This document shows, piece after piece, positions 232-36,082 of a DNA stretch of 64,000 nt. The notes below the pieces were generated by a model. The model was not told the DNA's origin, did not search any database, and worked only from the letters and a program-made list of their open reading frames with translations. The translations under genes and the position numbers were made by a program. Where the stretch lies: UHGV virus genome UHGV-0279745; one strand, given 5' to 3'. Every line of letters starts with the position of its first letter. Position 1 is the stretch's first letter. The DNA is from a virus.

Positions 232-313
232 ATAGGGGCTGAACTGGCACTTCAGCCCCTACGGACACGTTTCATTCGAAACGGATTGATTAAACCATTT
301 GGGGAGACAGATC

Positions 314-457
314 ATGTCTACTAAAAAGAAAGAAAGTCTCAATGAGCTGCTCAAACGGCTTAAAGACTACACTCCATTTAGTACCTGTTATCGGAAGGTA
401 CTAAAATTTTACAGTCTGCCCCTTTATTCTGCTACTCGGGATACCGGTAGGGGGTAG
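314..457 (+). CDS. small lysine-rich hypothetical protein (47 aa)
   Basis: ATG with GGAGA about 6 nt upstream; not in ORF track (under 60 aa); lies in the long leader downstream of promoter copy 1. Confidence 0.25.
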   Translation: MSTKKKESLNELLKRLKDYTPFSTCYRKVLKFYSLPLYSATRDTGRG

Positions 458-601
458 GGGGCATTATGTATACGGATATAAATAGCGGAGGTATACGTAG
501 TATACCGACATACTCTTCCCAGAGGAACGTAGTGACTTCCTTATACCTCTTTTACAATCCATAATAATAGACTCCCCTTTATTGAGATTAGCGAGTAAAT
601 C

Positions 602-1336: not shown

Positions 1337-1362
1337 GTAAAAACCTAAAAGGAGAATATATC

Positions 1363-1917
1363 ATGTATCTGACTAAACTGAAAAATGAAATTATCCAATC
1401 CCTTGAAAAAGGTGTAGGTGAACATTTCTTTAACTGTCCCTATACCGTACTGACCAATACCATTATTCAGCCAGGTGCGATGATAGTAGGGGTGAGTGTA
1501 CAAGCTGTGGAGGAAACCCCGCTGCGTCGCAACATCACGCGTAAAACGCATATCCCATTTAGAACGGGCTTTACAGATTACCTTCAGAGCTTACTGAAAG
1601 ATAGCGTTTGGAAAACAGGCAGCTTCTTCCACGATGGGAAGACTTCCACGCTGGTTTATAAAGAGAACACCAAGTATCTGGTTGATTTTCTCTTAGCGCG
1701 TCAATACGATTTCTTTCCATCCCCTTCTGGCACCACCCCTGATAATCCAGGTAAGTTATTAAACCAAGACGAAGCCGAAGCACTCTTTACAAGACTTCGG
1801 AATGAGCACTGCGATGTTGATGACTGGGAAACGTTGATCGCTGTCGCCAAAGTACATGGTTGGTATACTGTACGTAAAATCGGTCAGCAGTTGTTGTTCT
1901 TAGCTTACCCTGCTTAA
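1363..1917 (+). CDS. hypothetical protein, paralog family A member 2
   Basis: ORF track; strong RBS (ctaaaaggag); C-terminal HGWYTVRKIGQQLLFLA motif. Confidence 0.65.
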   Translation: MYLTKLKNEIIQSLEKGVGEHFFNCPYTVLTNTIIQPGAMIVGVSVQAVEETPLRRNITRKTHIPFRTGFTDYLQSLLKDSVWKTGSFFHDGKTSTLVYKENTKYLVDFLLARQYDFFPSPSGTTPDNPGKLLNQDEAEALFTRLRNEHCDVDDWETLIAVAKVHGWYTVRKIGQQLLFLAYPA

Positions 1918-1946
1918 GTAACGAAAAACCCTAAAGGAGAGTAAAA

Positions 1947-3098
1947 ATGCGAAATATTATTTCTAAGCCAGGACATGCCAAGATCCTAAAAGAACTGATG
2001 GACAGATGCTATAATCGGACTTGGTCACTACCAAGCTTAACCATCGAGTCTTCATTACAACGTGAGTTGTTTGGTTATAACTTGGGCTGTTGTGTACTTA
2101 GTGAATACAACCAGGTTATCGCGCCTGTCGATGTCTGTACTTCCGATGAAGAAATTGAAGGTTACCAGTTCACAGCTTACACAAATTGTGGACTAAATTA
2201 CCGTAAACTCGTTGTTAGGGAAATGAGTAGCAACCGGAAGATTATGTTTAAGGTCTTCCCAAGTGGTAAAGTCAGTAATTTATGTTTTCAGCTTGAGAAA
2301 GTGCCCTTTCACGGTGCAGCCATTTTAACTAAACCAGAACTCCTGTTATTAAGCGGGTTAATTGGCTTTGAAGTAAAAACCATCAAAGTTGAGCAGGAAC
2401 TTACACGAAACGATTTCGGCTCAACTTGGTACGAAAGTTTCTTCCGCTACGAAATGTTAAGTGATAAAGCTATCAAACTCACTTACCGTTCTACCGACGA
2501 CATCGTTTACCACATTTTAATTAGCGGCGAACCCCACCAGATTATTGAAGTCGGAGGAGAAAAATCCGTGCGTACCTTAAAAGATGAATTAACTGATTTT
2601 GTTAACAAAATTGATAACGTGGGTATCAGTGAATTATTGTTCCCGATTCAACATCCAGAGCTGCTTGACGAGAAATCTGAAAACGTGGTTATGGGTGTGC
2701 ATTTACTTCCTGACCATCTTGCTATCTACCGTACACTTTCTAAGAATCAACTTAAAGTGTGGTGCCTGTTAAAAGACCTTTTAACAGAGGCGGGGTGGTC
2801 GTGTAGTGTAGATGTTAACTGTGAAGGAGTTGCGTTCTTCATCACAATAGGCAATCGTAGTTTTTCTGTCGATTTACCTACTCGCAGCTATTACAATTTC
2901 TTCCCGACCGCAGAAGGACGTACTGAAAAAGAACCCGCATTACTGCTCAGTGCTGAGGAGTCCAATGCGTTAATGGCGAAACTAAAGGCGAAAGACGAGA
3001 AGCTGGATGCTTTACATCTACCTATAATCGGGAAAGACTACGGTTGGGCTGACGTGCAAAAATACGGCAGTCAGCTGTTGTTTGTTGCTGACCTTTAA
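1947..3098 (+). CDS. hypothetical protein, paralog family A member 3
   Basis: ORF track; RBS ctaaaggag; C-terminal GWADVQKYGSQLLFVA motif. Confidence 0.65.
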   Translation: MRNIISKPGHAKILKELMDRCYNRTWSLPSLTIESSLQRELFGYNLGCCVLSEYNQVIAPVDVCTSDEEIEGYQFTAYTNCGLNYRKLVVREMSSNRKIMFKVFPSGKVSNLCFQLEKVPFHGAAILTKPELLLLSGLIGFEVKTIKVEQELTRNDFGSTWYESFFRYEMLSDKAIKLTYRSTDDIVYHILISGEPHQIIEVGGEKSVRTLKDELTDFVNKIDNVGISELLFPIQHPELLDEKSENVVMGVHLLPDHLAIYRTLSKNQLKVWCLLKDLLTEAGWSCSVDVNCEGVAFFITIGNRSFSVDLPTRSYYNFFPTAEGRTEKEPALLLSAEESNALMAKLKAKDEKLDALHLPIIGKDYGWADVQKYGSQLLFVADL

Positions 3099-4592: not shown

Positions 4593-4614
4593 AGATATAT
4601 ATTACCTAGGTGAG
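4593..4614 (+). promoter_or_regulatory. candidate early-type phage promoter element, copy 2 (agatatatattacctaggtgag)
   Basis: Contains TATATTAC; lies between a terminator and the next gene; followed by a gtgagag/ctctcac hairpin (4610..4631). Confidence 0.45.
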
Positions 4615-4660
4615 AGTACAAAAGCTCTCACTTAATAAAACCATTTTAGGAGTATTAAAG

Positions 4661-5032
4661 ATGAAAAACGAATTATTTAAAGACCCGTTTGTTGTATTAA
4701 TGATCGTTACTCGCGCTGCCACTAACCCAGAAAACCTGAAACGTTTACTTACTAACGAAGCATACCTTATCGAACAGCGTGACGCGCAGTTAGCCAAACC
4801 GCACGCTGAAGGCCAGGCGAAAGACCTTATCTCTATTTTCCGTAACGAAGAATGGCGTAAAAACAACGAGCTGTCCGACAACTTGACGGTTGCAATTGCA
4901 AAACTCTTGACACTGTTCAATCTCGACAAAGACATTAACCAAAGCCTTTCTACAGAAGAACGTCTGGAAATGATAAGAGGTATCGGAGATAGTTATACAC
5001 AGATTAAAGCATTCCCCAACACAGTTATTTAA
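4661..5032 (+). CDS. hypothetical early protein, dispersed paralog of the 62129 gene
   Basis: ATG at 4661 with extended RBS ttaggagtattaaag; N-terminus MKNELFKDPFVVLMI identical to the 62129 ORF; first 44 coding nt identical. Confidence 0.7.
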   Translation: MKNELFKDPFVVLMIVTRAATNPENLKRLLTNEAYLIEQRDAQLAKPHAEGQAKDLISIFRNEEWRKNNELSDNLTVAIAKLLTLFNLDKDINQSLSTEERLEMIRGIGDSYTQIKAFPNTVI

Positions 5033-5078
5033 TTTCATAATTTGTGGGAATTTCCCCATAACCCGAAGGAGCATTTCA

Positions 5079-5540
5079 ATGAAAACCTTTATCACATTCT
5101 TAATAACCATTTTAACTTTCGGCCTCAATAGCGCACACGCCGCTATCAACAGCTGGGAACAAATACAAAACCCTGGGCAGGCAGTTTACGAAATCGAGGA
5201 CACCGCCGGAAACGGACTGTCTATCAACTGTGACACAGAAACTGCGAATCGCAAATTTTACGGTCGCATGGTTTGGTATTACGGTGAACCCGTAGGTGCA
5301 ACTAACGCGGAAGATAACACGATGGATATTGTCGTAAACGGCAAAACCTATAACATCCCTACCGTGGACGGTAGTGACAAAGCAGAACACGCTTGGGTTG
5401 CTTTCGTTAAAGCTATCGGTAATGCCAAAACTTTCAGTGTGAGTATCAATGGTAACGATGCCGCTAACTTTACCGTAGAAGGCGAACGTCTGTCTGAAAC
5501 TTTCTTCCAAAACTGTGGACACACCCGTCCTAACAAATAA
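5079..5540 (+). CDS. small secreted protein (predicted signal peptide)
   Basis: ORF track; hydrophobic N-terminus ending AHA; Cys residues. Confidence 0.65.
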   Translation: MKTFITFLITILTFGLNSAHAAINSWEQIQNPGQAVYEIEDTAGNGLSINCDTETANRKFYGRMVWYYGEPVGATNAEDNTMDIVVNGKTYNIPTVDGSDKAEHAWVAFVKAIGNAKTFSVSINGNDAANFTVEGERLSETFFQNCGHTRPNK

Positions 5541-5973: not shown

Positions 5974-6459
5974 ATGAAACGTTTACACACATTGATGTTC
6001 TTTCTGGTTTTCTTGTTTATCGGTGTCACGCCAACTGTAGATGCGGCCTCCGTAGACGAATTGCTTACCTGCGATGGAAACGCTTGGGAAGGTCAGCCAA
6101 ATGCGTGCCCAAACATCAACGACTTGTACGATACCGATAAGTCGTTTAAAGCCGTTGTTGATAAAACATTAGACCCTGTGGGACTGGATGGTATGTTCGG
6201 CTCTAAAGGTTACATGGATGGCCCTGGTGGTAACATGTATCCGGTAAACATCAACAACAAAATCTGGATTGAAAGTGGCGGTTGTAAAGCTAACGCTTGT
6301 GGTTGGGAATACATCGTAACGCTATACAACCCACACACCAAGAAACTCGTCGGCTATTACTACAACATCGACCCCGGTTATCTGATTTGGTTCGGTGATA
6401 TCGGTGTTGCCGAATTCGCTTACCTGGTTAAGAAATACGTAGAACAATCTAAATACTAA
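5974..6459 (+). CDS. small secreted cysteine-containing protein
   Basis: ORF track; signal peptide ending VDA; strong RBS ctaaaggag; multiple Cys. Confidence 0.65.
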   Translation: MKRLHTLMFFLVFLFIGVTPTVDAASVDELLTCDGNAWEGQPNACPNINDLYDTDKSFKAVVDKTLDPVGLDGMFGSKGYMDGPGGNMYPVNINNKIWIESGGCKANACGWEYIVTLYNPHTKKLVGYYYNIDPGYLIWFGDIGVAEFAYLVKKYVEQSKY

Positions 6460-7320: not shown

Positions 7321-7347
7321 GACATGTTTACCTAAAGGAGTATTAAA

Positions 7348-7824
7348 ATGCAATTATCTAACGTTTACCAAGCTGCGCAATTTCATCATGACCTGTCGGC
7401 TAAACCTGAACAAATTCGCCACAACTTAACGGTGGCCTGGAAACTGCTGCGTATCGCCGAAGCCTCGCGCCTTAACGATCAGTCGACGATTATCGAAACG
7501 GTGCGCACACTACATCCAGTCGACCTGGAAACAATCTGGACCTTTGATTTAACCCGAATTTATCACCGTCGTTTTAATGCGGCAGTTGATGCGATCCGTC
7601 CTTACTTTCACCACCTGCGGACAACACGCGAAAATGACACTGCACTTGAATGGGTATTGGTACAAAGCGTATGGAGCGACTACATTTATCTCCTTTCTTT
7701 AGAGACGGGTGAATGTATCGTTGCTAACGAAGTTTTTTCAAGTAACGCAGAAATGTATCGTTCCTTCGCGACGATTAAAGGTGAAACACAACCTATTTTA
7801 TCACTCACGCACTTAGGGCTGTAA
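7348..7824 (+). CDS. hypothetical protein
   Basis: ORF track; RBS cctaaaggagtattaaaatg. Confidence 0.65.
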   Translation: MQLSNVYQAAQFHHDLSAKPEQIRHNLTVAWKLLRIAEASRLNDQSTIIETVRTLHPVDLETIWTFDLTRIYHRRFNAAVDAIRPYFHHLRTTRENDTALEWVLVQSVWSDYIYLLSLETGECIVANEVFSSNAEMYRSFATIKGETQPILSLTHLGL

Positions 7825-7880: not shown

Positions 7881-8489
7881 ATGAACGAAATTACATTAGT
7901 TCGTTTTCTTGAAGCGATGCAAAATGCAGAGCGCTTTTCGCATACGCCTTTATTCATTGACTTAATGGAAGAAGAAGTAGAGGGATTCCTGGCATACCCT
8001 CGCTTACGGGAATATTTTAAACGTAAAACACCGACTGCTTACGAAAAGTTGGTTTACGCGCTTGAGAACAGTACAACATTGTTAACGTCACCTTTTAAGG
8101 CGTTGGAGGCTTTAGACCCGGCTGGTACCACAAGTATCCCACAACGTGTCGTGTTCTACTATATCGACCACGATCGAATCAAAGCCGATGTTGTTAACTG
8201 GATCTCTGAAAACGCAGTTCCTGAAACACGCACTTTTAATCTCTGTCCTGTAGAAGAAGGGTGGAAGGTCGGTAGCCACTATTCTTACCCGTACCAATCC
8301 ATTAAATCGCCGTTTTTATACCCGGTTTATCTGGATGACGTTACACCTGGAAATTGTATCCCGGTAACAAATCTGATCTGTACATTGACGATGGAAGTCT
8401 TAGCCACAAAGGCGGGACAGGTTTGGGTAGAAAACACGAAGAACGTCGATTATTGGACTTCAATGGGTTATCACCTGTACACCAAATAA
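7881..8489 (+). CDS. hypothetical protein
   Basis: ORF track; RBS aaaggaaaga. Confidence 0.65.
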   Translation: MNEITLVRFLEAMQNAERFSHTPLFIDLMEEEVEGFLAYPRLREYFKRKTPTAYEKLVYALENSTTLLTSPFKALEALDPAGTTSIPQRVVFYYIDHDRIKADVVNWISENAVPETRTFNLCPVEEGWKVGSHYSYPYQSIKSPFLYPVYLDDVTPGNCIPVTNLICTLTMEVLATKAGQVWVENTKNVDYWTSMGYHLYTK

Positions 8490-8492
8490 CGT

Positions 8493-8540
8493 TTGGGAGA
8501 ACCTTCGGGTTCTCCCTTTCTTTATTTTTTTTTCTTTTTA
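8493..8540 (+). terminator. intrinsic terminator
   Basis: gggagaacc-ttcg-ggttctccc hairpin plus long T-run. Confidence 0.7.
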
Positions 8541-8569
8541 CACCACACTCCGTCTTTATGGAGGTGGGT

Positions 8570-11074
8570 ATGCTAAAAGTTGAACGGATTATACTCAAAG
8601 GTTTTACGGGGATGGGATTACATGAAATTGAAACCTTCGATTTCACTATCCAGTCTCCGACAACAATTATCCTGGGTGGGAACGGCTGCGGGAAAACCAG
8701 TCTACTGTCTGTGTTCCTACCCTTAGCACCGGCTAAAACCGAATTCAGGGACGGCGGTTCTTACACAAACTACTGTTTAGTTGGCGATCAACGCTATCGT
8801 TTCAAAGTTGCCCGTAAAGGCAACTCTTTGGTTTGCGATATTGAGAACCTGACCACGGGGGCAAAGATCGTCGAGCAAGGTAATGCGAAAGTCTACAACT
8901 CCCGTGTTGAAGAAATCACAGGTATTACAAAAGAGATTAAAGAATTATTAAATGGTGAGGTGTTGTTAACCGATGCGGGAACCGAATTACGCCGCAAATG
9001 GTTTTACCGTTTAAGTACCTCTGATCTCACTTACGCGTTAGGGTTTTATCAACGTTTACGTAAAAACCTTACTGCCTTAAATGGGGGTATTGAAATCACC
9101 AGCCGTAAGATCGCCGAATTACGGACGCGTGTTATTGAGAACGAGGAAGAACGGCAGCAGTTAGCGACGAGATTAAAAGGTTTGGAATCGGATTTACGTG
9201 AACTGAACCGAGAAATCGAACAGTTACCAGGATTAAATCGTGCCGTCACCATCGAAACAATCCAAGCGTTATTAAACAGCTTGGGTCCAACCATCGACGC
9301 AATATTACAACATCGTGGTGGATTGCCTACTGATGAACAGATACTGGCCGCGCGACAAAACGAAGCGACGGCCCGCGAAGCCGTCGTGTCTACTGAAACA
9401 GAGGTATCGATGTTGAATAAAGACTTGTCGCTACTGATGGATGAGTCGACACGACAAGACTACCTGATGCGGAATCACGAAGGTCTCAAGAATACACTGG
9501 CACGTTTACGTGAGTTACTTACCAAATGGGACACCGAGCATCTCTTTCCGGGTTTATTTAACGACAACATCAATTTAGACCAACTTCGTGCGGCTACCGA
9601 CGCGCGTGTTTGGGGGCAACGGTTAGGAACAACACTGGACGCAATTCATTCAACCGAAAAACTTAATGTTTTGGAAGAACGGCTTCTGGTGATGGATCAA
9701 AAAACCGCAGGGTTGCGGGATAGACTCCAGCGAGTGGAGAACGTTTTACAGAATTTAAATCACGAACGTAATCACTACTTAGAAACAGCGGAAGTGGATT
9801 GCCCGCAGTGTCGGTTTAAGTTCCGTCCTGGCGTTACGCGTTCTTTACCTGAACTTGAGTCTTCGATTCGCGGACAACAACAGCAGCGCACGGAACTGCA
9901 AACGCAGTTAGAGACTCTATTACGCGATCGTGTTGAGTTAGAATCCGATGTAACTTATATGCGGCAGGTTCGTGAGATTGTACTGACGTATTCAAAGGAC
10001 CCGGTATTGAGCATGTTCTTTAAGCGTTTGCAAGAACGTAACGTTTTCACAGAATCACGTGAACAGTTCGGGAGTCTATGCGCAGCGTTTGACAGTGAGT
10101 TGTACTCTGCTATTGAGTACCATGAAACCCGTCAACGGTTAGTGAAGGCGGAAAAAGAATGGCAGGATGCCGTGGCGGCCGTTGGTAACGTCGATGGTGC
10201 TTTACAACAGAAAATTGCTTTCCAACAGTCACGATTAGGTAAAGCCACAGAGATGCTCTCAATGCGTCGTAGAGAGTACGAACTGGCTAACACGACACTT
10301 ACCTATCTGGTGAATGTTAAACGTGCTGTAGATGATTTCAGTGCGTTATTCGAACGGTTAGAGAGTGATGTTAAGGTTACGTTGACAAATACGGTCGTCG
10401 AGGAACTCTTACGTGCACGAGAAGGGAAGCTGGATGCTTTTACAACCGCACGCGAACGTTATCGTCAGATGGAAAATGAATTGAATCAGCTCAACAGTTT
10501 GGAACGCGAACTTGCTGACTTACAAGCCCAGCAATTCAATAACAAACTGATGATTCAAGCCTTCTCTCCAGAAAAGGGTGTACTTAGAAAGTATTTTTAC
10601 AACGCTATCGTTAGAATCACAGAGTTAATGACGCGTTATATCGAACAGGTCTGGACGTACCCCATGCGCGTTATGCCTTGTGACCTCACTGACGGCGATT
10701 TGGATTATACTTTTCCTGTCCAGCTAAAAACGCATCCTGAGCCTGTTCCTGACGTGCGTAAAGGGTCTAAGGCGCAGCGTGCGATATTTAATCTGATGTT
10801 CAGGCTGACTGCGTACAAAGCGCTGAAGTTGCATCAGTTTCCGTTGCTTTTGGATGAGCCTTCGGAAGGCATGGATGAGGAGCACCGTAACAACCTGGTC
10901 GGTTTTATTAAAACGTTAGCAAACTCGGGAGAATTTTCCCAACTGTTGGTAGTCTCCCACGAAGCCGAGGTTCATTCTAAACTTAATGAAGCATCGTACT
11001 GTGTCATCGAACCGGAAGGGGTGACATTGCCTGCGGTGTATAACGAAGGAGTAAAAATTGTTTATGCAAACTGA
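8570..11074 (+). CDS. SbcC/Rad50-like recombination ATPase
   Basis: Start moved to ATG 8570 (RBS GGAGGTGGG, downstream of terminator); Walker A GGNGCGKTS, long coiled-coil middle, CPQC zinc hook, C-terminal LLDEPSEGMD. Confidence 0.7.
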   Translation: MLKVERIILKGFTGMGLHEIETFDFTIQSPTTIILGGNGCGKTSLLSVFLPLAPAKTEFRDGGSYTNYCLVGDQRYRFKVARKGNSLVCDIENLTTGAKIVEQGNAKVYNSRVEEITGITKEIKELLNGEVLLTDAGTELRRKWFYRLSTSDLTYALGFYQRLRKNLTALNGGIEITSRKIAELRTRVIENEEERQQLATRLKGLESDLRELNREIEQLPGLNRAVTIETIQALLNSLGPTIDAILQHRGGLPTDEQILAARQNEATAREAVVSTETEVSMLNKDLSLLMDESTRQDYLMRNHEGLKNTLARLRELLTKWDTEHLFPGLFNDNINLDQLRAATDARVWGQRLGTTLDAIHSTEKLNVLEERLLVMDQKTAGLRDRLQRVENVLQNLNHERNHYLETAEVDCPQCRFKFRPGVTRSLPELESSIRGQQQQRTELQTQLETLLRDRVELESDVTYMRQVREIVLTYSKDPVLSMFFKRLQERNVFTESREQFGSLCAAFDSELYSAIEYHETRQRLVKAEKEWQDAVAAVGNVDGALQQKIAFQQSRLGKATEMLSMRRREYELANTTLTYLVNVKRAVDDFSALFERLESDVKVTLTNTVVEELLRAREGKLDAFTTARERYRQMENELNQLNSLERELADLQAQQFNNKLMIQAFSPEKGVLRKYFYNAIVRITELMTRYIEQVWTYPMRVMPCDLTDGDLDYTFPVQLKTHPEPVPDVRKGSKAQRAIFNLMFRLTAYKALKLHQFPLLLDEPSEGMDEEHRNNLVGFIKTLANSGEFSQLLVVSHEAEVHSKLNEASYCVIEPEGVTLPAVYNEGVKIVYAN

Positions 11075-13335: not shown

Positions 13336-14034
13336 ATGTTTCGTATCTTCTTTCTTTTACTGGTAACACTTTTCGCGTTTAACGCACAGGCGTCAACGTC
13401 AACGCCACATTCTAAGCATCAGCGTGAGTTTGCACAAATCCAACATCGGTTCGAAAAAGTCAGCCCGTTAATTGTGGAAATCTCACGAAAGCAGGGCGTT
13501 GATCCCAAGCTGATGATTACGCTGATTTATCGTGAATCGCGTTTTGATCCCAAGGCTTACAACAAAAGCTCACGAGCACATAGCCTGGTACAAATGCTTC
13601 CAAGTACCAAACGTAATCTGCTAAAGCTTTATGGAAAAGAATTAGGTCTTAGTCAGAACGCCGATTTGTATAATCCGCGCAACGCTGTTTTGCTGGCTAC
13701 CGCGTATGTTAAACATCTTGAGAAGGGGTTAACCAAACGACTCAAACGCAAGCCCACCATGGCTGAAATTGCGTTAGCTTACCACTGGGGTGAAAGTGGC
13801 GCTCACACGCGAATCAAAAGCAAATCTCGAGCAGCACAACGAGAAATGGCAGGCTTTATGAAAGACGCCGCGTTCTATAGCGCGAAAATCGATGTGCCTG
13901 TTGTTGTGGGCTCGGCCCCACGTCAGCTTGCGTTTGCGAAGAAAACACCACGTCAGATTCAACTGGCGGAAGTTAGTAGAATTTGGGATACGATAAACAC
14001 GAGTTTTCCAATCAATAGAGGAGTTACCCTTTGA
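13336..14034 (+). CDS. secreted lytic transglycosylase (SLT domain)
   Basis: ATG 13336 with GGAGA RBS; signal peptide MFRIFFLLLVTLFAFNAQA; SLT motif ESRFDPKAYNKSSRAHSLVQMLPST. Confidence 0.6.
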   Translation: MFRIFFLLLVTLFAFNAQASTSTPHSKHQREFAQIQHRFEKVSPLIVEISRKQGVDPKLMITLIYRESRFDPKAYNKSSRAHSLVQMLPSTKRNLLKLYGKELGLSQNADLYNPRNAVLLATAYVKHLEKGLTKRLKRKPTMAEIALAYHWGESGAHTRIKSKSRAAQREMAGFMKDAAFYSAKIDVPVVVGSAPRQLAFAKKTPRQIQLAEVSRIWDTINTSFPINRGVTL

Positions 14035-14540
14035 GCATCGTAGTAACCGATTGGTATAAAGGCATTACAAAAGCCGCACAATTGACCGCGAAAGACGTTT
14101 ACAGTATCGTCCGAAGCAGTATCGAAGACGAGATTAAGTCGGATGAAGAATTCGCTGAGAAACACGAATTTTACGATGCTTTACCCACAGCATTCGGCGA
14201 CGACGAAGAAGAAGGTTTAGAGTTTGACTGGAACGTCAACCTTGCCTTACTGTGGATTTGTGGTTTACGGCCAACGGTAAAAGAAACCGAAGAAGGAAAA
14301 GTCTTGCTTTGGAATTTTACCGGGCAGTATAACCGTAATTTAGTCTTTAAACAGGCGTATATGGACGCTACTGTAGAACTTCAAAATCTACTGCTTGGCG
14401 AAAACACATACTGCCAACGCAGTTTCTTAACGATTCTGGAAAAACTTGTGTCGACACACAAAGTCTGGCGTAAAGAAGACGCCCCGGAACATATGTTCAT
14501 TTTAGAGTACGCTGTCATTCCAAATCAGCCGTTCTTCTAA
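14031..14540 (+). CDS. hypothetical protein
   Basis: ORF track; TTG start overlapping upstream stop, AGGAG 7 nt upstream. Confidence 0.5.
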   Translation: MSIVVTDWYKGITKAAQLTAKDVYSIVRSSIEDEIKSDEEFAEKHEFYDALPTAFGDDEEEGLEFDWNVNLALLWICGLRPTVKETEEGKVLLWNFTGQYNRNLVFKQAYMDATVELQNLLLGENTYCQRSFLTILEKLVSTHKVWRKEDAPEHMFILEYAVIPNQPFF

Positions 14541-14544: not shown

Positions 14545-14586
14545 TACCCCTTACCCTATACGGTGTAAGGGGTACTTTTATTTTCA
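14545..14586 (+). terminator. intrinsic terminator
   Basis: ccccttac/gtaagggg hairpin plus T-run. Confidence 0.6.
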
Positions 14587-14606: not shown

Positions 14607-15086
14607 ATGATAAAATTCATTTGGCGTTATCCAACGCGTTTTTGGTTTGTGGTACTTGAACTGTGTATGGTTCTTGTAGCGGTTACTTTTGTCGAAGCGC
14701 CCGCCTCGCAGTTGGCCATTTTCTGCCTTTTCGTGACTGTCCCTGTATGGGTGATTGCGAAGGCTATTAAGTTCGTCATGGTGTGTTGGGCGAATTATAC
14801 CTGTCCGTATAAGCCTAAACAAATCATGAAATGGCTGATGTATATTGAAGAACGTTTACCGGCGCAACATAAATTACTGGGCTGGTCGTCAATGTTGGAT
14901 ATTGCACTAGAAACCAATGCAAAGTTCCCCGGTGCGAAAAACCCTTATTTGTTGATGGCGGTAATTGTTGCACAACAAAAACTGGTGGGTGACCGTTGGT
15001 TGCCAGAAGAAGCGAAAGCGTATATCCGTAAACATCCAAAAGCTTTTTACTCGGTAGGACAATGGCGTAACTTGCCATTATTTTAA
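14607..15086 (+). CDS. membrane protein (multiple predicted TM helices)
   Basis: ORF track; RBS cctaaaggagc; hydrophobic N-terminal half. Confidence 0.65.
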   Translation: MIKFIWRYPTRFWFVVLELCMVLVAVTFVEAPASQLAIFCLFVTVPVWVIAKAIKFVMVCWANYTCPYKPKQIMKWLMYIEERLPAQHKLLGWSSMLDIALETNAKFPGAKNPYLLMAVIVAQQKLVGDRWLPEEAKAYIRKHPKAFYSVGQWRNLPLF

Positions 15087-15140
15087 CTTTTTTACATAAC
15101 CCTTAGTTGATTTGAACAAACCTAAAAGAGGACTATTAAA

Positions 15141-16076
15141 ATGACTTTTCCATCTGAAGTAATTCACGAACTGGCTAACACGCTACGTCGTTACCATAGC
15201 AGCAAGACGATGCAAACCAATGTGGGTGCGACCGCCGACTTTTTACGTGGTTATTTCCTGGGCAGAAATCCAACGTCGATTACACAGGAAACGGTTTTCT
15301 CTATCGAACGTACCTCCTTAATCCTTCCAATTGATAATTTCACTGCGTTTCAAGAAAGGAATACGTTCAACTTCTCTATGGGAATGCTGTATTCGACCAT
15401 CGCCATTAATCCCATCATGAGAGATGACCCATCTTTCGTGCCTTACCAACATACAACGGATCACGGTAATTGGTTCGTTGTGGTAGAACAAGGTGCGAAT
15501 CAGTATGATGTTGTTGCAGCTCGTGACGAAGCTTTCTTTGATTTAGGGCAGATTTATCGCCGTCAAGAAATTGCGTTTGACCTACGTCAAGGTAATATCG
15601 GATTAAGTGGGTCTGCTGTCTATTTCATCCTGAGTAGTTGGTCACATGTAGGTTTTGTGCTGATGAAAAAAGGACCGTTGTTCAACTCACCGTTGGTAAA
15701 ATACCATAACCCTGAGGAAGGAGATCATGACGAAGAAGAAACGGTACCTAGCACAGAAGTCGCCGTTTGTGAAAACTACGATGATCTGAAATCTGTACTC
15801 GTTAAGCGTGATGTTTTCGAATCGTTAAACCTGGATTTCCCCGGTGACGAAAATGAAATATCCGTAGCTGACCTGGTAGAAGCGTTGTGTCAGAAAGACC
15901 AAGCTAACGAAATTAGCGACGAAGAAGCAGAACTCTTCCAAGTTCAACAACTCGTCAGCAAGGTTATCGGTGGACAGGGAATCGTTGACACTCTTATGGC
16001 TCTACCGCCGAAGAAACGAACTCAGAAGTATATTCGTGAGCTGGTTCTTGAAAACCTGGGTCAAACCAAAAAGTAA
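15141..16076 (+). CDS. hypothetical protein
   Basis: ORF track; RBS aaaagaggac. Confidence 0.65.
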   Translation: MTFPSEVIHELANTLRRYHSSKTMQTNVGATADFLRGYFLGRNPTSITQETVFSIERTSLILPIDNFTAFQERNTFNFSMGMLYSTIAINPIMRDDPSFVPYQHTTDHGNWFVVVEQGANQYDVVAARDEAFFDLGQIYRRQEIAFDLRQGNIGLSGSAVYFILSSWSHVGFVLMKKGPLFNSPLVKYHNPEEGDHDEEETVPSTEVAVCENYDDLKSVLVKRDVFESLNLDFPGDENEISVADLVEALCQKDQANEISDEEAELFQVQQLVSKVIGGQGIVDTLMALPPKKRTQKYIRELVLENLGQTKK

Positions 16077-16083
16077 TTTAAAT

Positions 16084-16118
16084 CCCCTACTCCTCCGGGA
16101 GTAGGGTTAATTCTTTTT
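16084..16118 (+). terminator. intrinsic terminator (CCCTACTCC/GGAGTAGGG stem family)
   Basis: ccctactcc-tccg-ggagtaggg plus T-run. Confidence 0.7.
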
Positions 16119-16137
16119 CCACCTTAGGAGTATTAAA

Positions 16138-16689
16138 ATGTTTCCATCGTCTGAATATTTAACTCATCTGGCTTACGGTATTCGCCGTGGTTCTGTTTTC
16201 CGCACACGTTTAAAGGATATAAATTTCCTGGCTAATTTCTTATTTGATCGTTTGTGGGATGGCGATAGTGTTTACAAAAAGATCACCGTAACACAACTTT
16301 ATTCCCTTATAGCAGCATCTGAAATTGTGCCTACGGATATTCGTCGATTTAAACGACAGCATAACGGGGATGTTACAATCAGCTTTCTTGATCGTTCTCC
16401 TATTACCGTTGAAATCGACGATCGTATTGACGCTAATAGTGAAATGTCTGGTTGGAAGATTCTGTTTGATTGTGGCAATCGTTATGCGGTACTTGGTTCC
16501 TCTGATGAGCGCGACTTCCCATTCGACAAACCCTACTACTACCTCAGTGAAGACGATTTCCCGGATAAAGAATCCAACATCTTTTTAAACGGAGACACAG
16601 TTTACTTCATTTTTCGTACCTGGAACGATGTTGCTGCTATGATTGCTCAAGGCGTCATCGATTACCGTAAACTAGAAGTTGACATTTAA
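16138..16689 (+). CDS. hypothetical protein
   Basis: ORF track; RBS ccttaggagtattaaaatg. Confidence 0.65.
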   Translation: MFPSSEYLTHLAYGIRRGSVFRTRLKDINFLANFLFDRLWDGDSVYKKITVTQLYSLIAASEIVPTDIRRFKRQHNGDVTISFLDRSPITVEIDDRIDANSEMSGWKILFDCGNRYAVLGSSDERDFPFDKPYYYLSEDDFPDKESNIFLNGDTVYFIFRTWNDVAAMIAQGVIDYRKLEVDI

Positions 16690-16700
16690 AATAAAAGCTA

Positions 16701-16731
16701 CCCTACTCCCGAAGGAGTAGGGTAATCTTTT
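16701..16731. terminator. bidirectional intrinsic terminator between convergent genes
   Basis: ccctactcc-cgaa-ggagtaggg flanked by A-run upstream and T-run downstream. Confidence 0.7.
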
Positions 16732-17355
16732 TTAGTTAACTAACCCGTTAGCTTTAAGAATCTCTAACATTTGGTTGTTTAACTCTTTTAATTTTTTGTT
16801 CTCTTCTGTCAACGCAGCAACTTTCTCACCTAATGGAATAGATTCACGAATTTTATTTTTTCGTGCCGCTTCCATCTGCAAGTGTTGTTCCTCCGTTACC
16901 TTTCCTTCATACTCGAGCGTTGTAATTTCAACTTTCGGCTCAATCCCTAGTGTATGCGTGAGAATATCTGAAACGTCTTTTGTTATAGACGACACTTTCA
17001 CGTAATCCGGTACCAGTGCCAAATCTACCACTAACACATTTCGTTGATACGTGATCCCGGATAAACCTGGGTATGATTCCAGGTAGGTGTCAGGTATGTA
17101 TACAACTTGACCGTCCCGAGATTTAAATGTCAGAATCGATGCACTAACATTCGCATCTGCTAAATATTCTTCACGTCCTAGCCCTACTGGCTGGTAATAC
17201 GAGTTATAAACGTCAATATTCTGACGTACTAAATCTGGGAAGGTACGTGACGCTTCTACCGTATAAATGACCGTCTCGGCTAAAGTAAACGGTGTTTTTA
17301 CTTTAAACAGTCCCGTGGTGTTGACTGGTACCTGGAGTGGTAAACGCGTAGCCAT
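16732..17355 (-). CDS. hypothetical protein (possible virion protein)
   Basis: ORF track; minus-strand pair with 17359..18732. Confidence 0.6.
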   Translation of the reverse strand: MATRLPLQVPVNTTGLFKVKTPFTLAETVIYTVEASRTFPDLVRQNIDVYNSYYQPVGLGREEYLADANVSASILTFKSRDGQVVYIPDTYLESYPGLSGITYQRNVLVVDLALVPDYVKVSSITKDVSDILTHTLGIEPKVEITTLEYEGKVTEEQHLQMEAARKNKIRESIPLGEKVAALTEENKKLKELNNQMLEILKANGLVN

Positions 17356-17358
17356 TCA

Positions 17359-18732
17359 TTACTCCTCGTCTAACTCGGTGTACCATTTCGCTTTCCGAGA
17401 CAGGATACGATATTCTACGTTGTCGTATTCAAACACCCAGAAGTAGTTATCAGGGTCAGCCTCATCGACCAGTTTTACAACATCTAAGCTGGTTTGATAC
17501 GGGTGGTATTCTTCCGCAGCAATAAGTGCCTGGAAGAATAACGCCAACCATTCGGTCGTTGTTTTCGACATACGCGCAATATCAGGGTTAGTCGTCGCAA
17601 TTAACGCATAATCCGGGATAGTTTCGTGTAAGGTCGCTTTCCGTGTATCGTTTTCCGGTCCACTGATTACAACACAGTTTAATGATTTATAAACTGTTGG
17701 TAAGTCAGTTACGTCTGTTGTAGGTTTACTGATCGTTTTAGTATTTCTTTCTGCTACCGTCTGGTCTGCCCATTCTCCAAACCGACTGATAGCTTTGACC
17801 CAGAAATCATATGGAAGGATGGGGGAATAAAGCGCCGCCACATCTTCCTCATTGGGTATCCCACGAATTTTCCATCCAGGGACAATTGTAAATTTCGTGG
17901 TAGTGAAAATTTCGGGAAATACTTTTACCCCGATAGGGACAGTAAAGCTAGAATTAGCGAGAATATGTTCTCGCAACGCTTGCTTTATTTTCGTTGGGTT
18001 TTTTCCCGCACGTCCGTAGATAATAACCGACATTGGGACAACTAGGGTAGACTCGTAGTTTTCTTGATCGTGCCAAGTATAGTAGTTGGTTTGGATGGCG
18101 GTATAAGGAAACCCTGCCATTAACTCATTGATTTTCTTATGGTGTTCGGTAAGGTTAAACCCTTCCATCGCCTTTTCAACGACTGACTTGGTCGACAAAA
18201 ATGTGTCGATTGGTGAAATCGGCATCTGTACTTCGATTTCGAACCCTGTGTAATCTTGATCGAAGTCTTCATCCGAGAACCAAACAATGATCTGATTATC
18301 TACATCAGTGTCATCTTGTACTTGATCTGCCGTTACTTCATATTTCCAGCTCACCCAACGTGGGAACCAGTTACTGTTCGTCTGTATCATCGCACCAGAC
18401 TGAACACCAGAAATGGTTGATTGGAATTGGCCTAATAACAGGCGCTGGAATTCGAGTTCGTCATTTCTCAGATTCCCCAAGATGGCTTGCTGGTAAATCC
18501 ATTGAGAAACGGTTAGAATATGATCAGAAAATTCGGCTGGTACAACAACCGTCTGTTTTTCTCGTTTAGACGTAAAAGTCACCAATTGAACTTGCAAATT
18601 GGTTTTAGTAAACGTCTGTTTACTCTTCGCGTACGAGAGTGTCAAATCCGACAGCTCGCCCACCGGAGCGGTGACGCCGTCCTGATTGTCAAACAGTGCC
18701 GGTATCTGAATAAAACCTTGTAAGTCTAACAT
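17359..18732 (-). CDS. hypothetical protein (possible virion protein)
   Basis: ORF track; 457 aa. Confidence 0.6.
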   Translation of the reverse strand: MLDLQGFIQIPALFDNQDGVTAPVGELSDLTLSYAKSKQTFTKTNLQVQLVTFTSKREKQTVVVPAEFSDHILTVSQWIYQQAILGNLRNDELEFQRLLLGQFQSTISGVQSGAMIQTNSNWFPRWVSWKYEVTADQVQDDTDVDNQIIVWFSDEDFDQDYTGFEIEVQMPISPIDTFLSTKSVVEKAMEGFNLTEHHKKINELMAGFPYTAIQTNYYTWHDQENYESTLVVPMSVIIYGRAGKNPTKIKQALREHILANSSFTVPIGVKVFPEIFTTTKFTIVPGWKIRGIPNEEDVAALYSPILPYDFWVKAISRFGEWADQTVAERNTKTISKPTTDVTDLPTVYKSLNCVVISGPENDTRKATLHETIPDYALIATTNPDIARMSKTTTEWLALFFQALIAAEEYHPYQTSLDVVKLVDEADPDNYFWVFEYDNVEYRILSRKAKWYTELDEE

Positions 18733-18757
18733 AATTAAAAATACTCCGAGGTGAGCA

Positions 18758-19261
18758 ATGGGTTCATTTTTTAAAGTGCTTCCGTTCTTCCTTCAGATGT
18801 TAATGGAAGCATTTAAACCAGGAGAAGGAGAAAACGTATCAAGAGCAAGCAAGATAATGACTTTAATCATCACGATCTTGTTGTCGTATTCTGGCTTCGT
18901 CTCCTACGCCTATGTACAACAGTTTCACGCGCTCGTTGCAGTGCAGTCTCATGACACTTATATGTCGCAGTCTTACCAAGAGATGAAACAAGATCGAGAT
19001 AAACTAAAAGAAGATAATGGGAAGTTATACGACAGGCTCTTCGTTTGCCTCGGCCAGAAACCGCCATATGAAAGCACGTTTAATTCATCGAAAGCGAGCG
19101 GTACGGCGAAGGATCTGTCTTCGACAAAACCAGAAACTCCTGTTAATCCAGCTTCAACACCAGAACAACGTAAAGAGGCTTCGGCGAGACCTGTTGGCAA
19201 TTTAAATGCGAACAGTTTTCGACAGGAGATCATAAAGACGCTAACGTCTTCTAAGGAGTGA
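18758..19261 (+). CDS. membrane-anchored hypothetical protein
   Basis: ORF track; RBS GAGGTGA; N-terminal hydrophobic segments. Confidence 0.55.
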   Translation: MGSFFKVLPFFLQMLMEAFKPGEGENVSRASKIMTLIITILLSYSGFVSYAYVQQFHALVAVQSHDTYMSQSYQEMKQDRDKLKEDNGKLYDRLFVCLGQKPPYESTFNSSKASGTAKDLSSTKPETPVNPASTPEQRKEASARPVGNLNANSFRQEIIKTLTSSKE

Positions 19262-24051: not shown

Positions 24052-24576
24052 GTGGATATTTTAATTCAGCTTCGCAAGAAAACAACCATTGCCACACCGA
24101 TAGCGCTAGAGGAGAAAATCTCTGGTGCGGTTGCACGCAAGCTCTGTGGTGCTCACGGCTTTAGCGACCATCAGGAGCGGGTCGTTACTGTCGCCACATT
24201 ACACAACTTACGACACACAGTACATTACTGTTTAGTTGACAACGTCACCATCACTCTTGATGATAACGTAAATGTCGACCAACTGCGGCGCGAAATTGTC
24301 CACAAGATCGAGGCTTACAATAGACGTTTCGAACGGGCATGTACGCGTTTAACTGATGACGAAGCACTACGAAAACGTTTGAAACTTGAAATTGAATATG
24401 CAGCGCAACGTTATGGGGTTGGCGGTACCGAACCGTGTCTGACCGAACAAGAAATCACGTTAGCAATCGAGGTTTATACCACTCTCTGCTGCGCCATCCT
24501 AAAAGAGACCAACCACGAAATTACAAAAGCGTTGTTAAACACCGCAGACAAAATCACCCCAATTTTAGGACAATAA
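24052..24576 (+). CDS. hypothetical protein
   Basis: ORF track; GTG start with cctaaaggagta RBS. Confidence 0.55.
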   Translation: MDILIQLRKKTTIATPIALEEKISGAVARKLCGAHGFSDHQERVVTVATLHNLRHTVHYCLVDNVTITLDDNVNVDQLRREIVHKIEAYNRRFERACTRLTDDEALRKRLKLEIEYAAQRYGVGGTEPCLTEQEITLAIEVYTTLCCAILKETNHEITKALLNTADKITPILGQ

Positions 24577-24577
24577 A

Positions 24578-25066
24578 ATGAACTTAAATCATAACTTCGA
24601 TATTCGTGACACCGATTTCGTACATGAATTTCTCAATAACGAAACGCGTGTACGAAAAGAAATTGAAGAAAAGTTGACTCCGTTGGTTGTAGACACTCCC
24701 TGGATGGCGGACTACGCCGCGTCCTACTTTTCTTCTCAGAGCTTATTTGGATACATATTTATCATACTTGACTTCTTCGATCCATCAAGCAAGCGCATAA
24801 CAGAAACATACGTTCGGCAACGCCTACGCCACGGTCGCAACGAGTTCTTAAAGAAAGTTTCTGATGCGTACCACATGGGTCGATTCCCTACTCCGCTAGT
24901 CCCTTATACAGAACCGGAATGGGATAAATTTTATACCCGGATTTGGGTTGAAGACTCTCTCTTGAACGAAATCGTAGAAATCATCAAGCGTAACGAAAAC
25001 CAACTTGCTCTGCAACTATGGGAGTGGCTAAAAGCTAATTATCCTGATTACGTCAAAATCGACTAA
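24578..25066 (+). CDS. hypothetical protein
   Basis: ORF track. Confidence 0.6.
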   Translation: MNLNHNFDIRDTDFVHEFLNNETRVRKEIEEKLTPLVVDTPWMADYAASYFSSQSLFGYIFIILDFFDPSSKRITETYVRQRLRHGRNEFLKKVSDAYHMGRFPTPLVPYTEPEWDKFYTRIWVEDSLLNEIVEIIKRNENQLALQLWEWLKANYPDYVKID

Positions 25067-25070
25067 TAGA

Positions 25071-25104
25071 CACCCTAGCTTCGGCTAGGGTTACTTTATT
25101 TTTA
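25071..25104 (+). terminator. intrinsic terminator
   Basis: ccctagc-ttcg-gctaggg plus T-run. Confidence 0.65.
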
Positions 25105-25125
25105 ACCATTTTAGGAGAATAAACC

Positions 25126-26052
25126 ATGTATTTGTACAAAAGTAAAAAAGTAAAAGGTATTAAAGACTGCCTTAGACAAATGGGGTCTCAGCATCTTGAA
25201 AATGTAATGGAAGAAAACCGAATAAAGGAAAATCCTGTCTCGAAATGGATAAAAAAGAATCGTAACCATTTAACCAATGCCTTTATACCTTACGACGCTG
25301 AGTTAGGTCTCAAAGATCCCCGTTCCCTTCACGCACAAACATTAGCAATTGGATGGCTATACGGTGGTGCTTCCTTAATATCCAACCAAGCACTTAGAGA
25401 ACTTGTTTTCGAGACTGAGATGCCCAGTAAATTCCCTGAAGAATGGTTGGACTTTATACCTACCTGGACTGTGGCAATCGACGTAGGTAAAGAGGATGAG
25501 ACTTTCTTTCTCGGCTATCGAAAAAACGGGAATAGAAGGTTTATCATAATTGCTACAAATACTGATTACGGGTTAACAGAAGGCGTTACCACAATTGCCA
25601 CTTGTTCGTTAGAGCTTCGTAGTGCAGGAAACGGGCTTGTGGAAATCGACTATGCCGACGGTGTGGAGAACGAACAAGAAAAGATGCTATGGTTATCTCT
25701 GGCCAAAGCCGCTACTTCGATGATATTTCTGTGCACGCTAATCCCGCCCAATTACAGGGAGTCTTTTAATGATATTAAGTTCAAGGAAATCAAAAAGAAC
25801 GGTAGTATTAGTTACGACGTTAAACCTCGTGAACGCGATGTTAAGATAGATATCACGCCAGGACAAGTGAATTATCTAAAAGGGTTTAACACTGACTTGA
25901 AAACCATGCAGGGTATCAAACATGCTAAGGCTGCCCACATCCGTCGCGCTCACTGGCGCAGATATTGGGTCGGCCCTAGAAATGGTGAAAGAAAAAGAAA
26001 ACTTTGTTGGATTCCACCTACATTTGTCCGTGGCTACGTACCCCACAATTAA
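25126..26052 (+). CDS. hypothetical protein, tandem paralog family B member 1
   Basis: ORF track; C-terminal AHIRRAHWRRYW..W.PP motif shared with next gene. Confidence 0.65.
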   Translation: MYLYKSKKVKGIKDCLRQMGSQHLENVMEENRIKENPVSKWIKKNRNHLTNAFIPYDAELGLKDPRSLHAQTLAIGWLYGGASLISNQALRELVFETEMPSKFPEEWLDFIPTWTVAIDVGKEDETFFLGYRKNGNRRFIIIATNTDYGLTEGVTTIATCSLELRSAGNGLVEIDYADGVENEQEKMLWLSLAKAATSMIFLCTLIPPNYRESFNDIKFKEIKKNGSISYDVKPRERDVKIDITPGQVNYLKGFNTDLKTMQGIKHAKAAHIRRAHWRRYWVGPRNGERKRKLCWIPPTFVRGYVPHN

Positions 26053-26076
26053 GCTAAAGTGTTTAGGAGTATTAAA

Positions 26077-26976
26077 ATGACAACGAATAATAGACTTTAC
26101 GGGAAAGCGCTAAGACGCATGAGCGAACAAATAGAAAAGGCACACCAAACAATTCACGGATTAGATCAGTGTCGTTTTATTCGGTTCATTAACGAGCATA
26201 AACGTCAAATACCCGTAACGTTTATACCAGTTAAAGATCCGACCTATCGTGAGTATGGCGTTACAGAACAGATTCCCAGACTGATTAAGCAGTCTCTGGG
26301 ACTAGGATGGCAATACGCTGCTGTTGAAATCATCTCGGATGAAGAACTGATGGCGCTCTTAGCAAAAACTGAGAGACTAAAAAATATCCCGTACTTCTGG
26401 ATAGAAACCATCCCTTCATTTACTTTCTCGGTTACTGTAAATCTCGACGAAAGTCCAATCACGTTATTTATCGGAAGACGTCTTTACGAAGGTGAAGAAG
26501 TTCTCTTTGTGATGTCATGCGAAGAACATGGCGAGTCGGTATACATGGAGTTTGAGATTTACACGATCGACAAAAGTAATGATGATTTCGTGGAGTTAAA
26601 GCCGCTCCTTACTTCGGTTAAGGAGAATCAACGACTACTCGACGCGGTCTACATCGGGCTATATCTTTCATCACGAATTAAGCGAACCGAACGTGAGAAG
26701 AAAGAATTTCGCGGAAGGTCCATTCGTTATGTTCCTGATACAGAAATTCGCCCACGTAGTGAAGCAGTCGTTTTAGATGTAAGTCCGGTACAATGGGAAG
26801 ATATAGAGCAGCAACGCAAGGAAGGACACGAGGTTTGTTTGGCGATTTATTGCGCCGCACATATCCGTCGTGCGCATTGGAAGCGTGTATGGTGTGGTAA
26901 AATGTCAGAAATGCGCTGGCGCGAATGGCGATGGATAGCGCCGAGTTACATTTCTGGATTTTATCGTGGGAAATAA
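26077..26976 (+). CDS. hypothetical protein, tandem paralog family B member 2
   Basis: ATG 26077 with gtttaggagtattaaa RBS; C-terminal AHIRRAHWKRVW motif. Confidence 0.65.
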   Translation: MTTNNRLYGKALRRMSEQIEKAHQTIHGLDQCRFIRFINEHKRQIPVTFIPVKDPTYREYGVTEQIPRLIKQSLGLGWQYAAVEIISDEELMALLAKTERLKNIPYFWIETIPSFTFSVTVNLDESPITLFIGRRLYEGEEVLFVMSCEEHGESVYMEFEIYTIDKSNDDFVELKPLLTSVKENQRLLDAVYIGLYLSSRIKRTEREKKEFRGRSIRYVPDTEIRPRSEAVVLDVSPVQWEDIEQQRKEGHEVCLAIYCAAHIRRAHWKRVWCGKMSEMRWREWRWIAPSYISGFYRGK

Positions 26977-26984
26977 ATAGTTTA

Positions 26985-27030
26985 CCCCTAGACCGTGTGG
27001 TCTAGGGGTAACTTTACTTTTTTATTTTTT
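26985..27030. terminator. bidirectional intrinsic terminator between convergent genes
   Basis: cccctagacc-gtgt-ggtctagggg with T-runs on both sides. Confidence 0.65.
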
Positions 27031-36040: not shown

Positions 36041-36082
36041 CCCACCCTACTCCTGACTAGGAGTAGGGTATTTTCATTTTTT
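36041..36082 (+). terminator. intrinsic terminator (CCCTACTCC/GGAGTAGGG stem family)
   Basis: ccctactcc-tgacta-ggagtaggg plus T-run. Confidence 0.7.

Follow-up and report, generated by a model that had tools for sequence, protein, structure and literature searches.

A recurrent hairpin stem with the features of a transcription terminator in a jumbo phage related to phiEaH2 and SPN3US

Why would several hairpins at the gene ends of one phage genome share the same stem and differ in their loops? The question is raised by a stretch of 64,000 nucleotides (nt) from virus genome UHGV-0279745 (hereafter the window), which, on the evidence of its encoded proteins and gene order, belongs to a jumbo phage with Erwinia phage phiEaH2 and Salmonella phage SPN3US among its relatives. 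An original prediction had noticed an identical stem, CCCTACTCC/GGAGTAGGG, in three hairpins with different loops and a related stem, CCTACCTCC/GGAGGTAGG, in a fourth. It had taken them for a family of terminators of non-independent origin, arising by duplication of a terminator cassette or representing a structured-RNA family. The sequence is as described, with the fourth stem at 41199-41224 (Table 1). In our view this phage, which is phiKZ-like, probably uses the four hairpins as Rho-independent terminators, with stems that have been retained, copied and kept complementary.

Anatomy and recurrence of the four hairpins

All four hairpins are built like intrinsic terminators. Their stems are perfect, with 9 to 11 base pairs (bp) of which six are G-C, and their loops have 4 nt (6 nt in hairpin 3, where an additional T-A pair brings the stem to 11 bp and leaves gact as the loop). 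The hairpins start 6 to 10 nt past the stop codons at 16076, 16689, 36038 and 41191, and each has a run of at least five T's in 8 nt. Hairpins 2 and 4 have such a run on both strands, as an A-run before and a T-run after the palindrome present a hairpin followed by a U-run in either direction; both are best read, from this arrangement, as bidirectional terminators. Hairpins 1 and 3, for their part, have neighbouring genes on the same strand. The predicted RNA folds range from -18.3 to -24.4 kcal/mol, with z scores from -4.3 (hairpin 1) to -6.7 relative to shuffled sequences. This anatomy supports the view that the hairpins form a family of terminators.

On the transcribed strand, the loop of hairpin 1 is UCCG, of the UNCG type, while the minus-strand loops of hairpins 2 and 4 are UUCG and GAAA, respectively. 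Among the hairpins with a one-sided T-run in phiEaH2, SPN3US and the window, UNCG loops are in the sense orientation relative to the T-run in 23 cases and antisense in 2. Such a tetraloop matters only in RNA, so this bias points to RNA as the working form. Two other roles at the RNA level were considered and rejected. Pairing of TACTCC in the 5' arm with the ribosome-binding site GGAGTA of the next gene would involve 6 bp, too weak to compete with a hairpin of 9 to 11 bp, and the stems are far below the length needed for processing by RNase III (roughly 20 bp).

The recurrence of the stem is not a product of chance. The genome-wide search for the stem proposed with the original prediction, here run on both strands of the window, gave seven copies of CCCTACTCC where 0.28 were expected, and none of 100 shuffled sequences had as many. 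Six of these copies are the arms of hairpins 1 to 3. The seventh (24886-24894) has no partner arm, lies within the open reading frame (ORF) 24578-25066 and was taken as an unrelated occurrence. A scan of the whole window against Rfam gave no match at or above the gathering threshold of any family, and a tRNA scan of the window revealed no tRNA gene. With ordinary terminator anatomy and no Rfam match, the suggestion of a separate structured-RNA family found no support. No promoter-like site of the sigma-70 type was found beside any of the four hairpins.

Table 1. Hairpins of the window and the gene bracketed by two of them, with positions counted from the first nucleotide of the window
Feature	Position	Strand	Sequence	Setting	Fold (kcal/mol)
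Hairpin 1	16085-16106 (with tail to 16118)	+	CCCTACTCC tccg GGAGTAGGG, then TTAATTCTTTTT	Between co-directional genes 15141-16076 and 16138-16689	-18.3
Hairpin 2	16699-16724	both	TACCCTACTCC cgaa GGAGTAGGGTA; A-run upstream, ATCTTTTTT downstream	Between convergent genes 16138-16689 (+) and 16732-17355 (-, DUF7194)	-20.7 (+), -24.4 (-)
Hairpin 3	36044-36069 (with tail to 36082)	+	ACCCTACTCC tgacta GGAGTAGGGT, then ATTTTCATTTTTT	Downstream of gene 35379-36038; left border of five-gene block 36102-38248 (without phiEaH2 counterpart)	-19.3
Hairpin 4	41199-41224	both	TACCTACCTCC tttc GGAGGTAGGTA; A/T runs on either side	Between convergent genes 40358-41191 (+) and 41250-41813 (-, DUF7941)	-20.5 (+), -23.0 (-)
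Hairpin of the wider class, G-free 5' arm	14545-14574	+	TACCCCTTAC..GTAAGGGGTA, then CTTTTATTTT	Downstream of gene 14031-14540	
Bidirectional hairpin	26982-27011	both	TTACCCCTAGACC gtgt GGTCTAGGGGTAA	Convergent junction	
Related short hairpin	25072-25091	+	ACCCTAGC ttcg GCTAGGGT, then T-run	Inside window-specific block 24052-26976	
Gene (183 amino acids)	16138-16689	+		Bracketed by hairpins 1 and 2	

Distribution of the stem and likeness to known terminators

The phage group was assigned by protein-level and distant searches rather than by near-identity nucleotide searches, which found no close relative for window positions 15000-19000 or for locus L035. The large SMC-like protein of the window shares 71% identity with its counterpart in Erwinia phage Asesino and about 59% with the one in SPN3US. 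Gene-by-gene synteny links the window to phiEaH2 83.7-149 kb, a region whose annotation includes RNA polymerase beta subunits and a giant tail fibre. The more distant Erwinia phage RisingSun, which carries the same hairpin core, encodes PhuZ tubulin and a nuclear shell protein, indicating that the wider group consists of nucleus-forming, phiKZ-like phages. Seven blocks of the window had no tblastn counterpart in phiEaH2 (299-3098, 4610-5540, 5974-6459, 14607-16689, 24052-26976, 36102-38248 and 62129-62518), with the remainder of the 64 kb being syntenic; most of these blocks are bounded by terminator hairpins of some type.

The complete genomes of phiEaH2, SPN3US and RisingSun were searched for perfect stems of at least 8 bp with at least four G-C pairs, a loop of 3 to 8 nt and a T-run on at least one side. 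This census gave 40 hairpins in phiEaH2, 46 in SPN3US and 35 in RisingSun, of which 18, 20 and 13, respectively, have no G in the 5' arm; the 64-kb window had 13 (4 of them G-free), and a control of 150 kb from Escherichia coli K-12 had 15 (2 of them G-free). The G-free class thus makes up about 40% of the strong terminators of these phages. Its 5' arm consists of C, T and A, roughly (T)ACC-Y-ACTCC, and its 3' arm is the purine-rich complement GGAGT-R-GGT(A). Examples of the 5' arm are TACCTACTCC, ACCCTACTCC, CTACCCACTCC, CTACCCTCTCC, CCCTCTTACC and ATACTCCTACTCCC. This is the main class of terminators in the phage group, and the exact stem of the window is a variant of it. A search allowing mismatches and G-U pairs was too noisy for perfect and imperfect stems to be compared. 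In phiEaH2, about 11 of some 15 family members were found at convergent junctions (classified manually from gene tables, not computed).

Within the class, identical stems recur more often than composition predicts. Pairs of G-free stems with the same loop-proximal 8-mer numbered 16 in phiEaH2 (3.3 under a position-weight null; P ~0.003) and 5 in SPN3US (0.66; P ~0.003). This recurrence above a position-specific composition null in related genomes, together with that above chance in the window, bears out the claim of a non-independent origin. The sole 8-mer common to all four censused genomes is CCTACTCC, and favourite stems otherwise seem to differ from genome to genome. The favourite of SPN3US, for instance, is found as three identical stems, CCCTCTTACC ttcg GGTAAGAGGG, at the unrelated places 67345, 94154 and 180981 (loci L140 and L142).

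The stem reaches well beyond these genomes. In IMG/VR, the pattern CCCTACTCC-N4-GGAGTAGGG, with 18 specified bases, was found at 27 loci, of which 22 encode phiEaH2 homologues, and several genomes had three to five copies. The 8-bp core CCTACTCC-N3-8-GGAGTAGG was found at no fewer than 120 loci. Contigs of at least 200 kb carried about half of the core loci listed. Of 131 loci, about 80 encode homologues of phiEaH2 proteins, with 45 to 100% identity at 35 loci and only 20 to 35% at about 45. Core carriers include RisingSun (235 kb, five loci), Vibrio phage 2 TSL-2019 (242 kb, four loci), Photobacterium phage PDCC-1 and Vibrio phage USC-1. A 37-nt unit comprising the stem, a UUCG loop and a T-run was present in 87 of the 50,697 records of a phage record collection, at up to seven places per record and nearly always in unannotated DNA; among the matches listed, nearly all carriers were of 220 to 290 kb. 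The organism names of the 87 carriers are mostly those of phages of Salmonella, Erwinia, Ralstonia, Vibrio, Burkholderia, Pseudomonas and Edwardsiella. The core CCTACTCC/GGAGTAGG is thus present in several copies per genome in phiEaH2, SPN3US, RisingSun, and Vibrio and other phages of 220 to 290 kb, and is rare elsewhere. The finding is real and not due to chance, and the terminator family runs through a large group of jumbo phages. Two giant-virus metagenome contigs, labelled GVMAG and unrelated to jumbo phages (L039, 3424-3530; L092, 9881-9989), were also found to carry tandem repeats of 44 to 45 nt, each with a CCTACTCC-N3-GGAGTAGG hairpin.

Terminators with a shared stem of another sequence are already known from phiKZ and 201phi2-1. 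In phiKZ, 133 termination regions were mapped by ONT-cappable-seq (Oxford Nanopore Technologies), and the motif 5'-BCCYCCCCHWWDGGGRRGGBYTTATKYYGT-3' is common to 61 terminator regions; most by far of the intrinsic terminators predicted in that study are from phiKZ (Putzeys et al. 2024, PMC10914365). Five terminator motifs were described in 201phi2-1, and the commonest of them (motif A, n = 59) is similar to that of phiKZ. A reporter assay in the uninfected host served to test eight 201phi2-1 terminators in vivo (PMC11512511). Like the phages studied here, phiKZ and 201phi2-1 are jumbo phages with their own multisubunit RNA polymerases and dozens of terminators per genome built on one stem. They also share the pyrimidine-rich, G-free 5' arm, the purine-rich 3' arm, the short loop, the T-rich tail and the presence of some bidirectional sites between convergent genes. 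The stems themselves differ, as the window has CCCTACTCC/GGAGTAGGG with its TAC words where phiKZ has CCYCCCC/GGGRRGG, and a TTCTTCTTTTTTT-like tail instead of TTAT. Accordingly, the phiKZ terminator pattern had no match in the window at up to two mismatches. Two further differences are that the core described here is common to several genera with different hosts, and that the mapped 3' ends are those of phiKZ and 201phi2-1, not of this group.

Our literature search returned no description of a CCTACTCC family, the motif string matching only unrelated primers, and nothing relevant on terminators of Erwinia jumbo phages. New features are the stem itself, the range of genera and hosts over which it occurs, the rule of arm polarity and the flipping of loops described below. 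A second stem sequence would thus play the phiKZ-type role in the SPN3US/phiEaH2 group, with an 8-bp core that extends to distant genera and other hosts. It could serve as a simple marker of operon ends in some 90 published jumbo-phage genomes that lack transcript maps, and it may offer a compact, probably bidirectional, set of terminators for engineering.

Change of stems and loops between relatives

At orthologous junctions, phiEaH2 and SPN3US have related stems with compensated changes (e.g., CTACCCACTCC versus CTACCCTCTCC and CGAGTAGCCC versus CGAGTACCCC), and the terminator downstream of the major head gene is identical in the two phages. The junction of hairpin 2 has the stem CTACCTACTCC in both phiEaH2 (loop ttcg) and SPN3US (loop caag), which indicates that this terminator is old. 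At the junction of the window hairpin at 26982 (TTACCCCTAGACC), phiEaH2 (111439) and SPN3US have stems of the TACCCACTCC type, showing that the stem was replaced in the lineage of the window. The junction of hairpin 4 carries CGAGTAGCCC-type stems in phiEaH2 (127119) and SPN3US.

All four hairpins adjoin differences from phiEaH2, and hairpins 1 and 3 adjoin genes that are missing from it. The gene bracketed by hairpins 1 and 2 is missing at this place in both phiEaH2 and SPN3US. A homologue search for this gene gave four close relatives, all with the gene and both hairpins in the same arrangement, and was therefore uninformative on mobility. Terminators outside the family, at 233, 3125, 4535, 26982 and 61994, are likewise at block edges. 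The proposed duplication of a terminator cassette thus stands only in part. The copies at 16085 and 36044 do adjoin genes absent from phiEaH2, but neither flanks nor loops are similar between copies, the copy at 16699 is old and unrelated terminators are also found at the edges.

The loops change in another way. With the loci oriented by the bracketed gene, the loop at the site of hairpin 1 is tccg in the window (16094-16097), L144, L146 and L147, and cgga in L145. At the site of hairpin 2 it is cgaa in the window (16710-16713), cgaaaa in L144, ttttcg in L145, ttcg in L146 and ttct in L147 (the loops of L144 to L147 are at about 1957-1960 and 2570-2575, respectively). Over 4.5 kb, the window shares 95.8% identity with L146. 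L144 and L145 are 94% identical, and BLAST aligned the hairpin of these two in reverse orientation, without a mismatch over 28 nt. Similar flips were found between orthologues of hairpin 3 and at another site (tccg in L012, at 5728, versus cgga in L021, at 1673; L058 versus L129). In these relatives, which are 94 to 96% identical, the flipped loops are exact reverse complements, with stems and flanks unchanged. Exact reverse complements at no fewer than four sites exclude point mutation, indicating that loops flip by small inversions within the palindromes. Within the window, the loop of hairpin 1 (tccg) is nearly the reverse complement of that of hairpin 2 (cgaa, or ttcg on the other strand), and loop flipping accounts for part of the loop differences among the window hairpins.

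Minute inversions in hairpin loops were reportedly noted in chloroplast non-coding DNA by Kelchner and Wendel in 1996. As in those inversions and in template-switch mutation at quasi-palindromes, close relatives differ in the orientation of the loop but not in stem or flanks. Unlike in plastid spacers and bacterial mutation assays, the flips described here affect a strand-specific RNA tetraloop. An earlier description of such flips for phage terminators was not found in our literature search. They show that rearrangement of short terminator palindromes takes little evolutionary time, which bears on the turnover of both regulatory elements and neighbouring genes in large phages.

In the mechanism that we propose, the nascent RNA past the stop codon would fold into a G+C-rich stem of 9 to 11 bp, usually closed by a UNCG or GNRA tetraloop, and the U-run that follows would lead to transcript release. 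The copies at 16699 and 41199, perfect palindromes flanked by A- and T-runs, would stop transcription from both directions. Three processes may explain the pattern of stems: old terminators would be kept at conserved gene junctions; gain or replacement of genes beside terminators would bring copies of the common stem of the genome to new sites; and strong selection, probably with palindrome-templated repair, would hold the arms perfectly complementary. The loop would be unconstrained, and it flips by inversion within the palindrome. The analysis demonstrates how the hairpins are built and placed, that they recur beyond chance, which phages carry them, and that their loops are biased in orientation and flip; that transcription ends at these sites, and how the copies spread, we infer.

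Several points weigh against this reading. In hairpin 1 the T-run is not continuous (TTAATTCTTTTT). The distance from hairpins 1 and 3 to the next ATG downstream is only about 31 nt, which leaves no room for an obvious promoter, so that the downstream genes would depend on read-through; this suggests that termination at these two hairpins is partial. No 3'-end mapping was found for this phage or for any SPN3US-like phage, and the E. coli control of the census is small (n = 15 hairpins). Copying of the common stem upon gene gain fits the data, yet it is not demonstrated, since unrelated terminators are also present at block edges, the similarity is confined to the stem and the four close relatives all have both hairpins. 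In addition, no gene-plus-hairpin unit was present in one and absent in another of the relatives examined.

Alternative readings and other repeated elements

The identical palindromes could instead be mainly points of recombination, where exchange between copies inserts, deletes or swaps genes and termination is secondary. In jumbo phages they would then correspond to the PeSL (promoter-early stem-loop) cassettes described for T4-like phages (Arbiol et al. 2010, PMC2839356; Comeau et al. 2014, PMC4122927), which provide a precedent. Both are intergenic repeated stem-loops of large virulent phages, often beside genes that vary between relatives, and in both a gene may be bracketed by copies. 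The bracketed gene missing from phiEaH2 and SPN3US, the replaced five-gene block at hairpin 3 and the two extra genes of phiEaH2 at hairpin 4 all agree with this idea, and loop flipping demonstrates DNA-level rearrangement of the palindromes. However, a PeSL is a composite of a stem-loop, an early promoter of the sigma-70 type, a ribosome-binding site and a start codon, conserved mainly in the promoter, whereas the window hairpins share only the stem and have no such promoter alongside. Judging by phiKZ, these jumbo phages are not known to rely on the host polymerase. Furthermore, the shared sequence extends over just 18 to 22 bp, and the presence of non-family terminators at block edges ties the association to terminators in general. 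All four close relatives keep the hairpin-gene-hairpin arrangement, with no excision or insertion caught. We therefore regard a primary role in recombination as unlikely.

The conservation of the stem sequence itself could result from descent with constrained change, from copying or from recognition by a phage factor, the last being improbable. In that last case, the stem would be a signal read by a conserved factor such as one of the phage multisubunit RNA polymerases, a termination or antitermination protein or an RNA-binding protein of 3' ends. Selection for recognition would account for the persistence of CCTACTCC/GGAGTAGG in distant genera, with no need for descent or copying. RisingSun, Vibrio phage 2 TSL-2019 and large metagenome contigs all have several copies per genome of the same 8-bp core, with no more than 20 to 35% identity in the proteins that they share. 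That this core is the one 8-mer found in every censused genome, and that arm polarity is fixed, the 5' arm being the one without G, as in CCYCCCC/GGGRRGG of phiKZ (PMC10914365), also speak for such a factor. Nevertheless, only about 40% of strong terminators have the G-free arm, and the exact core is far rarer. Stems drift by compensated changes or are replaced, as seen at 26982 and 41199 of the window versus 111439 and 127119 of phiEaH2, and descent would also yield a fixed polarity, as changes that pass through G-U pairs keep the pyrimidines in one arm. Moreover, 201phi2-1 terminators of several motif types were assayed in the uninfected host, with no phage factor present (PMC11512511). It thus seems improbable that CCTACTCC/GGAGTAGG, or the wider polarity of G-free arms, is a sequence-specific signal across the nucleus-forming jumbo phages of enterobacteria, vibrios and relatives. 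If it were, the stem would carry information beyond stability, and the signal would be read by one of the two phage RNA polymerases or by a protein that processes, protects or exports the 3' ends of phage-nucleus mRNA. The shared stems of phiKZ and 201phi2-1 were reported without explanation, and the present family opens the question whether the unusual phage RNA polymerases or another factor sense stem sequence and arm polarity.

A perfect, multicopy, intergenic palindrome might also be a DNA site for a dimeric binder (a repressor, a partition protein or a nuclease). This is very improbable, given that a dimeric binder would not tolerate half-site spacers that vary, as those of the family members do, from 3 to 8 bp, that the orientation bias of UNCG loops is relevant to RNA only, and that the hairpins lie just past stop codons with T-runs downstream. 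Finally, it is barely conceivable that the hairpins are mobile palindromes like the REP (repetitive extragenic palindromic) sequences and BIMEs (bacterial interspersed mosaic elements), spread by a REP-associated tyrosine transposase: although they too are many extragenic palindromes at gene 3' ends, with a 3' arm containing GTAG, the conserved head of bacterial REP sequences, they have much shorter, perfect stems with tetraloops and T-runs, unlike the clustered, imperfect REP palindromes of about 35 nt, and the annotations of the complete phiEaH2, SPN3US and RisingSun genomes contain no transposase (the window proteins were not scanned for Y1).

Besides the terminators with G-free arms, the genomes have a second terminator family of opposite arm polarity, GGGAGA(A)CC ttcg GG(T)TCTCCC (or GGAGACC ttcg GGTCTCC), found only at co-directional junctions and with a one-sided T-run. 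Its sites are 8495-8516 in the window and 3689, 21271, 39211, 60733, 86801, 88883 and 92249 in phiEaH2. The window site falls inside the mechanically called ORF 8354-11074, the true start of which is probably near 8570, since homology to relatives begins at residue 73; with this start, the hairpin is not intragenic but lies between gene 7881-8489 and the SMC/SbcC-like gene.

Two further words recur in the window. The 13-mer AGATATATWTTAC has three exact intergenic copies on the plus strand (211-223, 4593-4605 and 62056-62068), each of which directly precedes a gene block absent from phiEaH2 (299-3098, 4610-5540 and 62129-62518, respectively). It resembles the AT-rich ...TATATTAC early promoter of phiKZ and so may be an early promoter of the virion RNA polymerase. 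The intergenic DNA of SPN3US is enriched in a related word, AGATAGATATTAT. TTTTTAC was also considered as a promoter word in the tails of terminators and was dropped, as its count in the window (30 versus 22.9 expected) showed no enrichment. The second word is a translation-start unit of about 20 nt, CCTAAAGGAGTATTAAAATG, with five copies at up to three mismatches (none expected) and a gapped copy after hairpin 1. Its sites are at 1930-1949, 7331-7350, 16120-16140, 36085-36104, 40341-40360 and 62111-62130, mostly downstream of a terminator, and the GGAGTA that it contains is also a word of the hairpin 3' arms.

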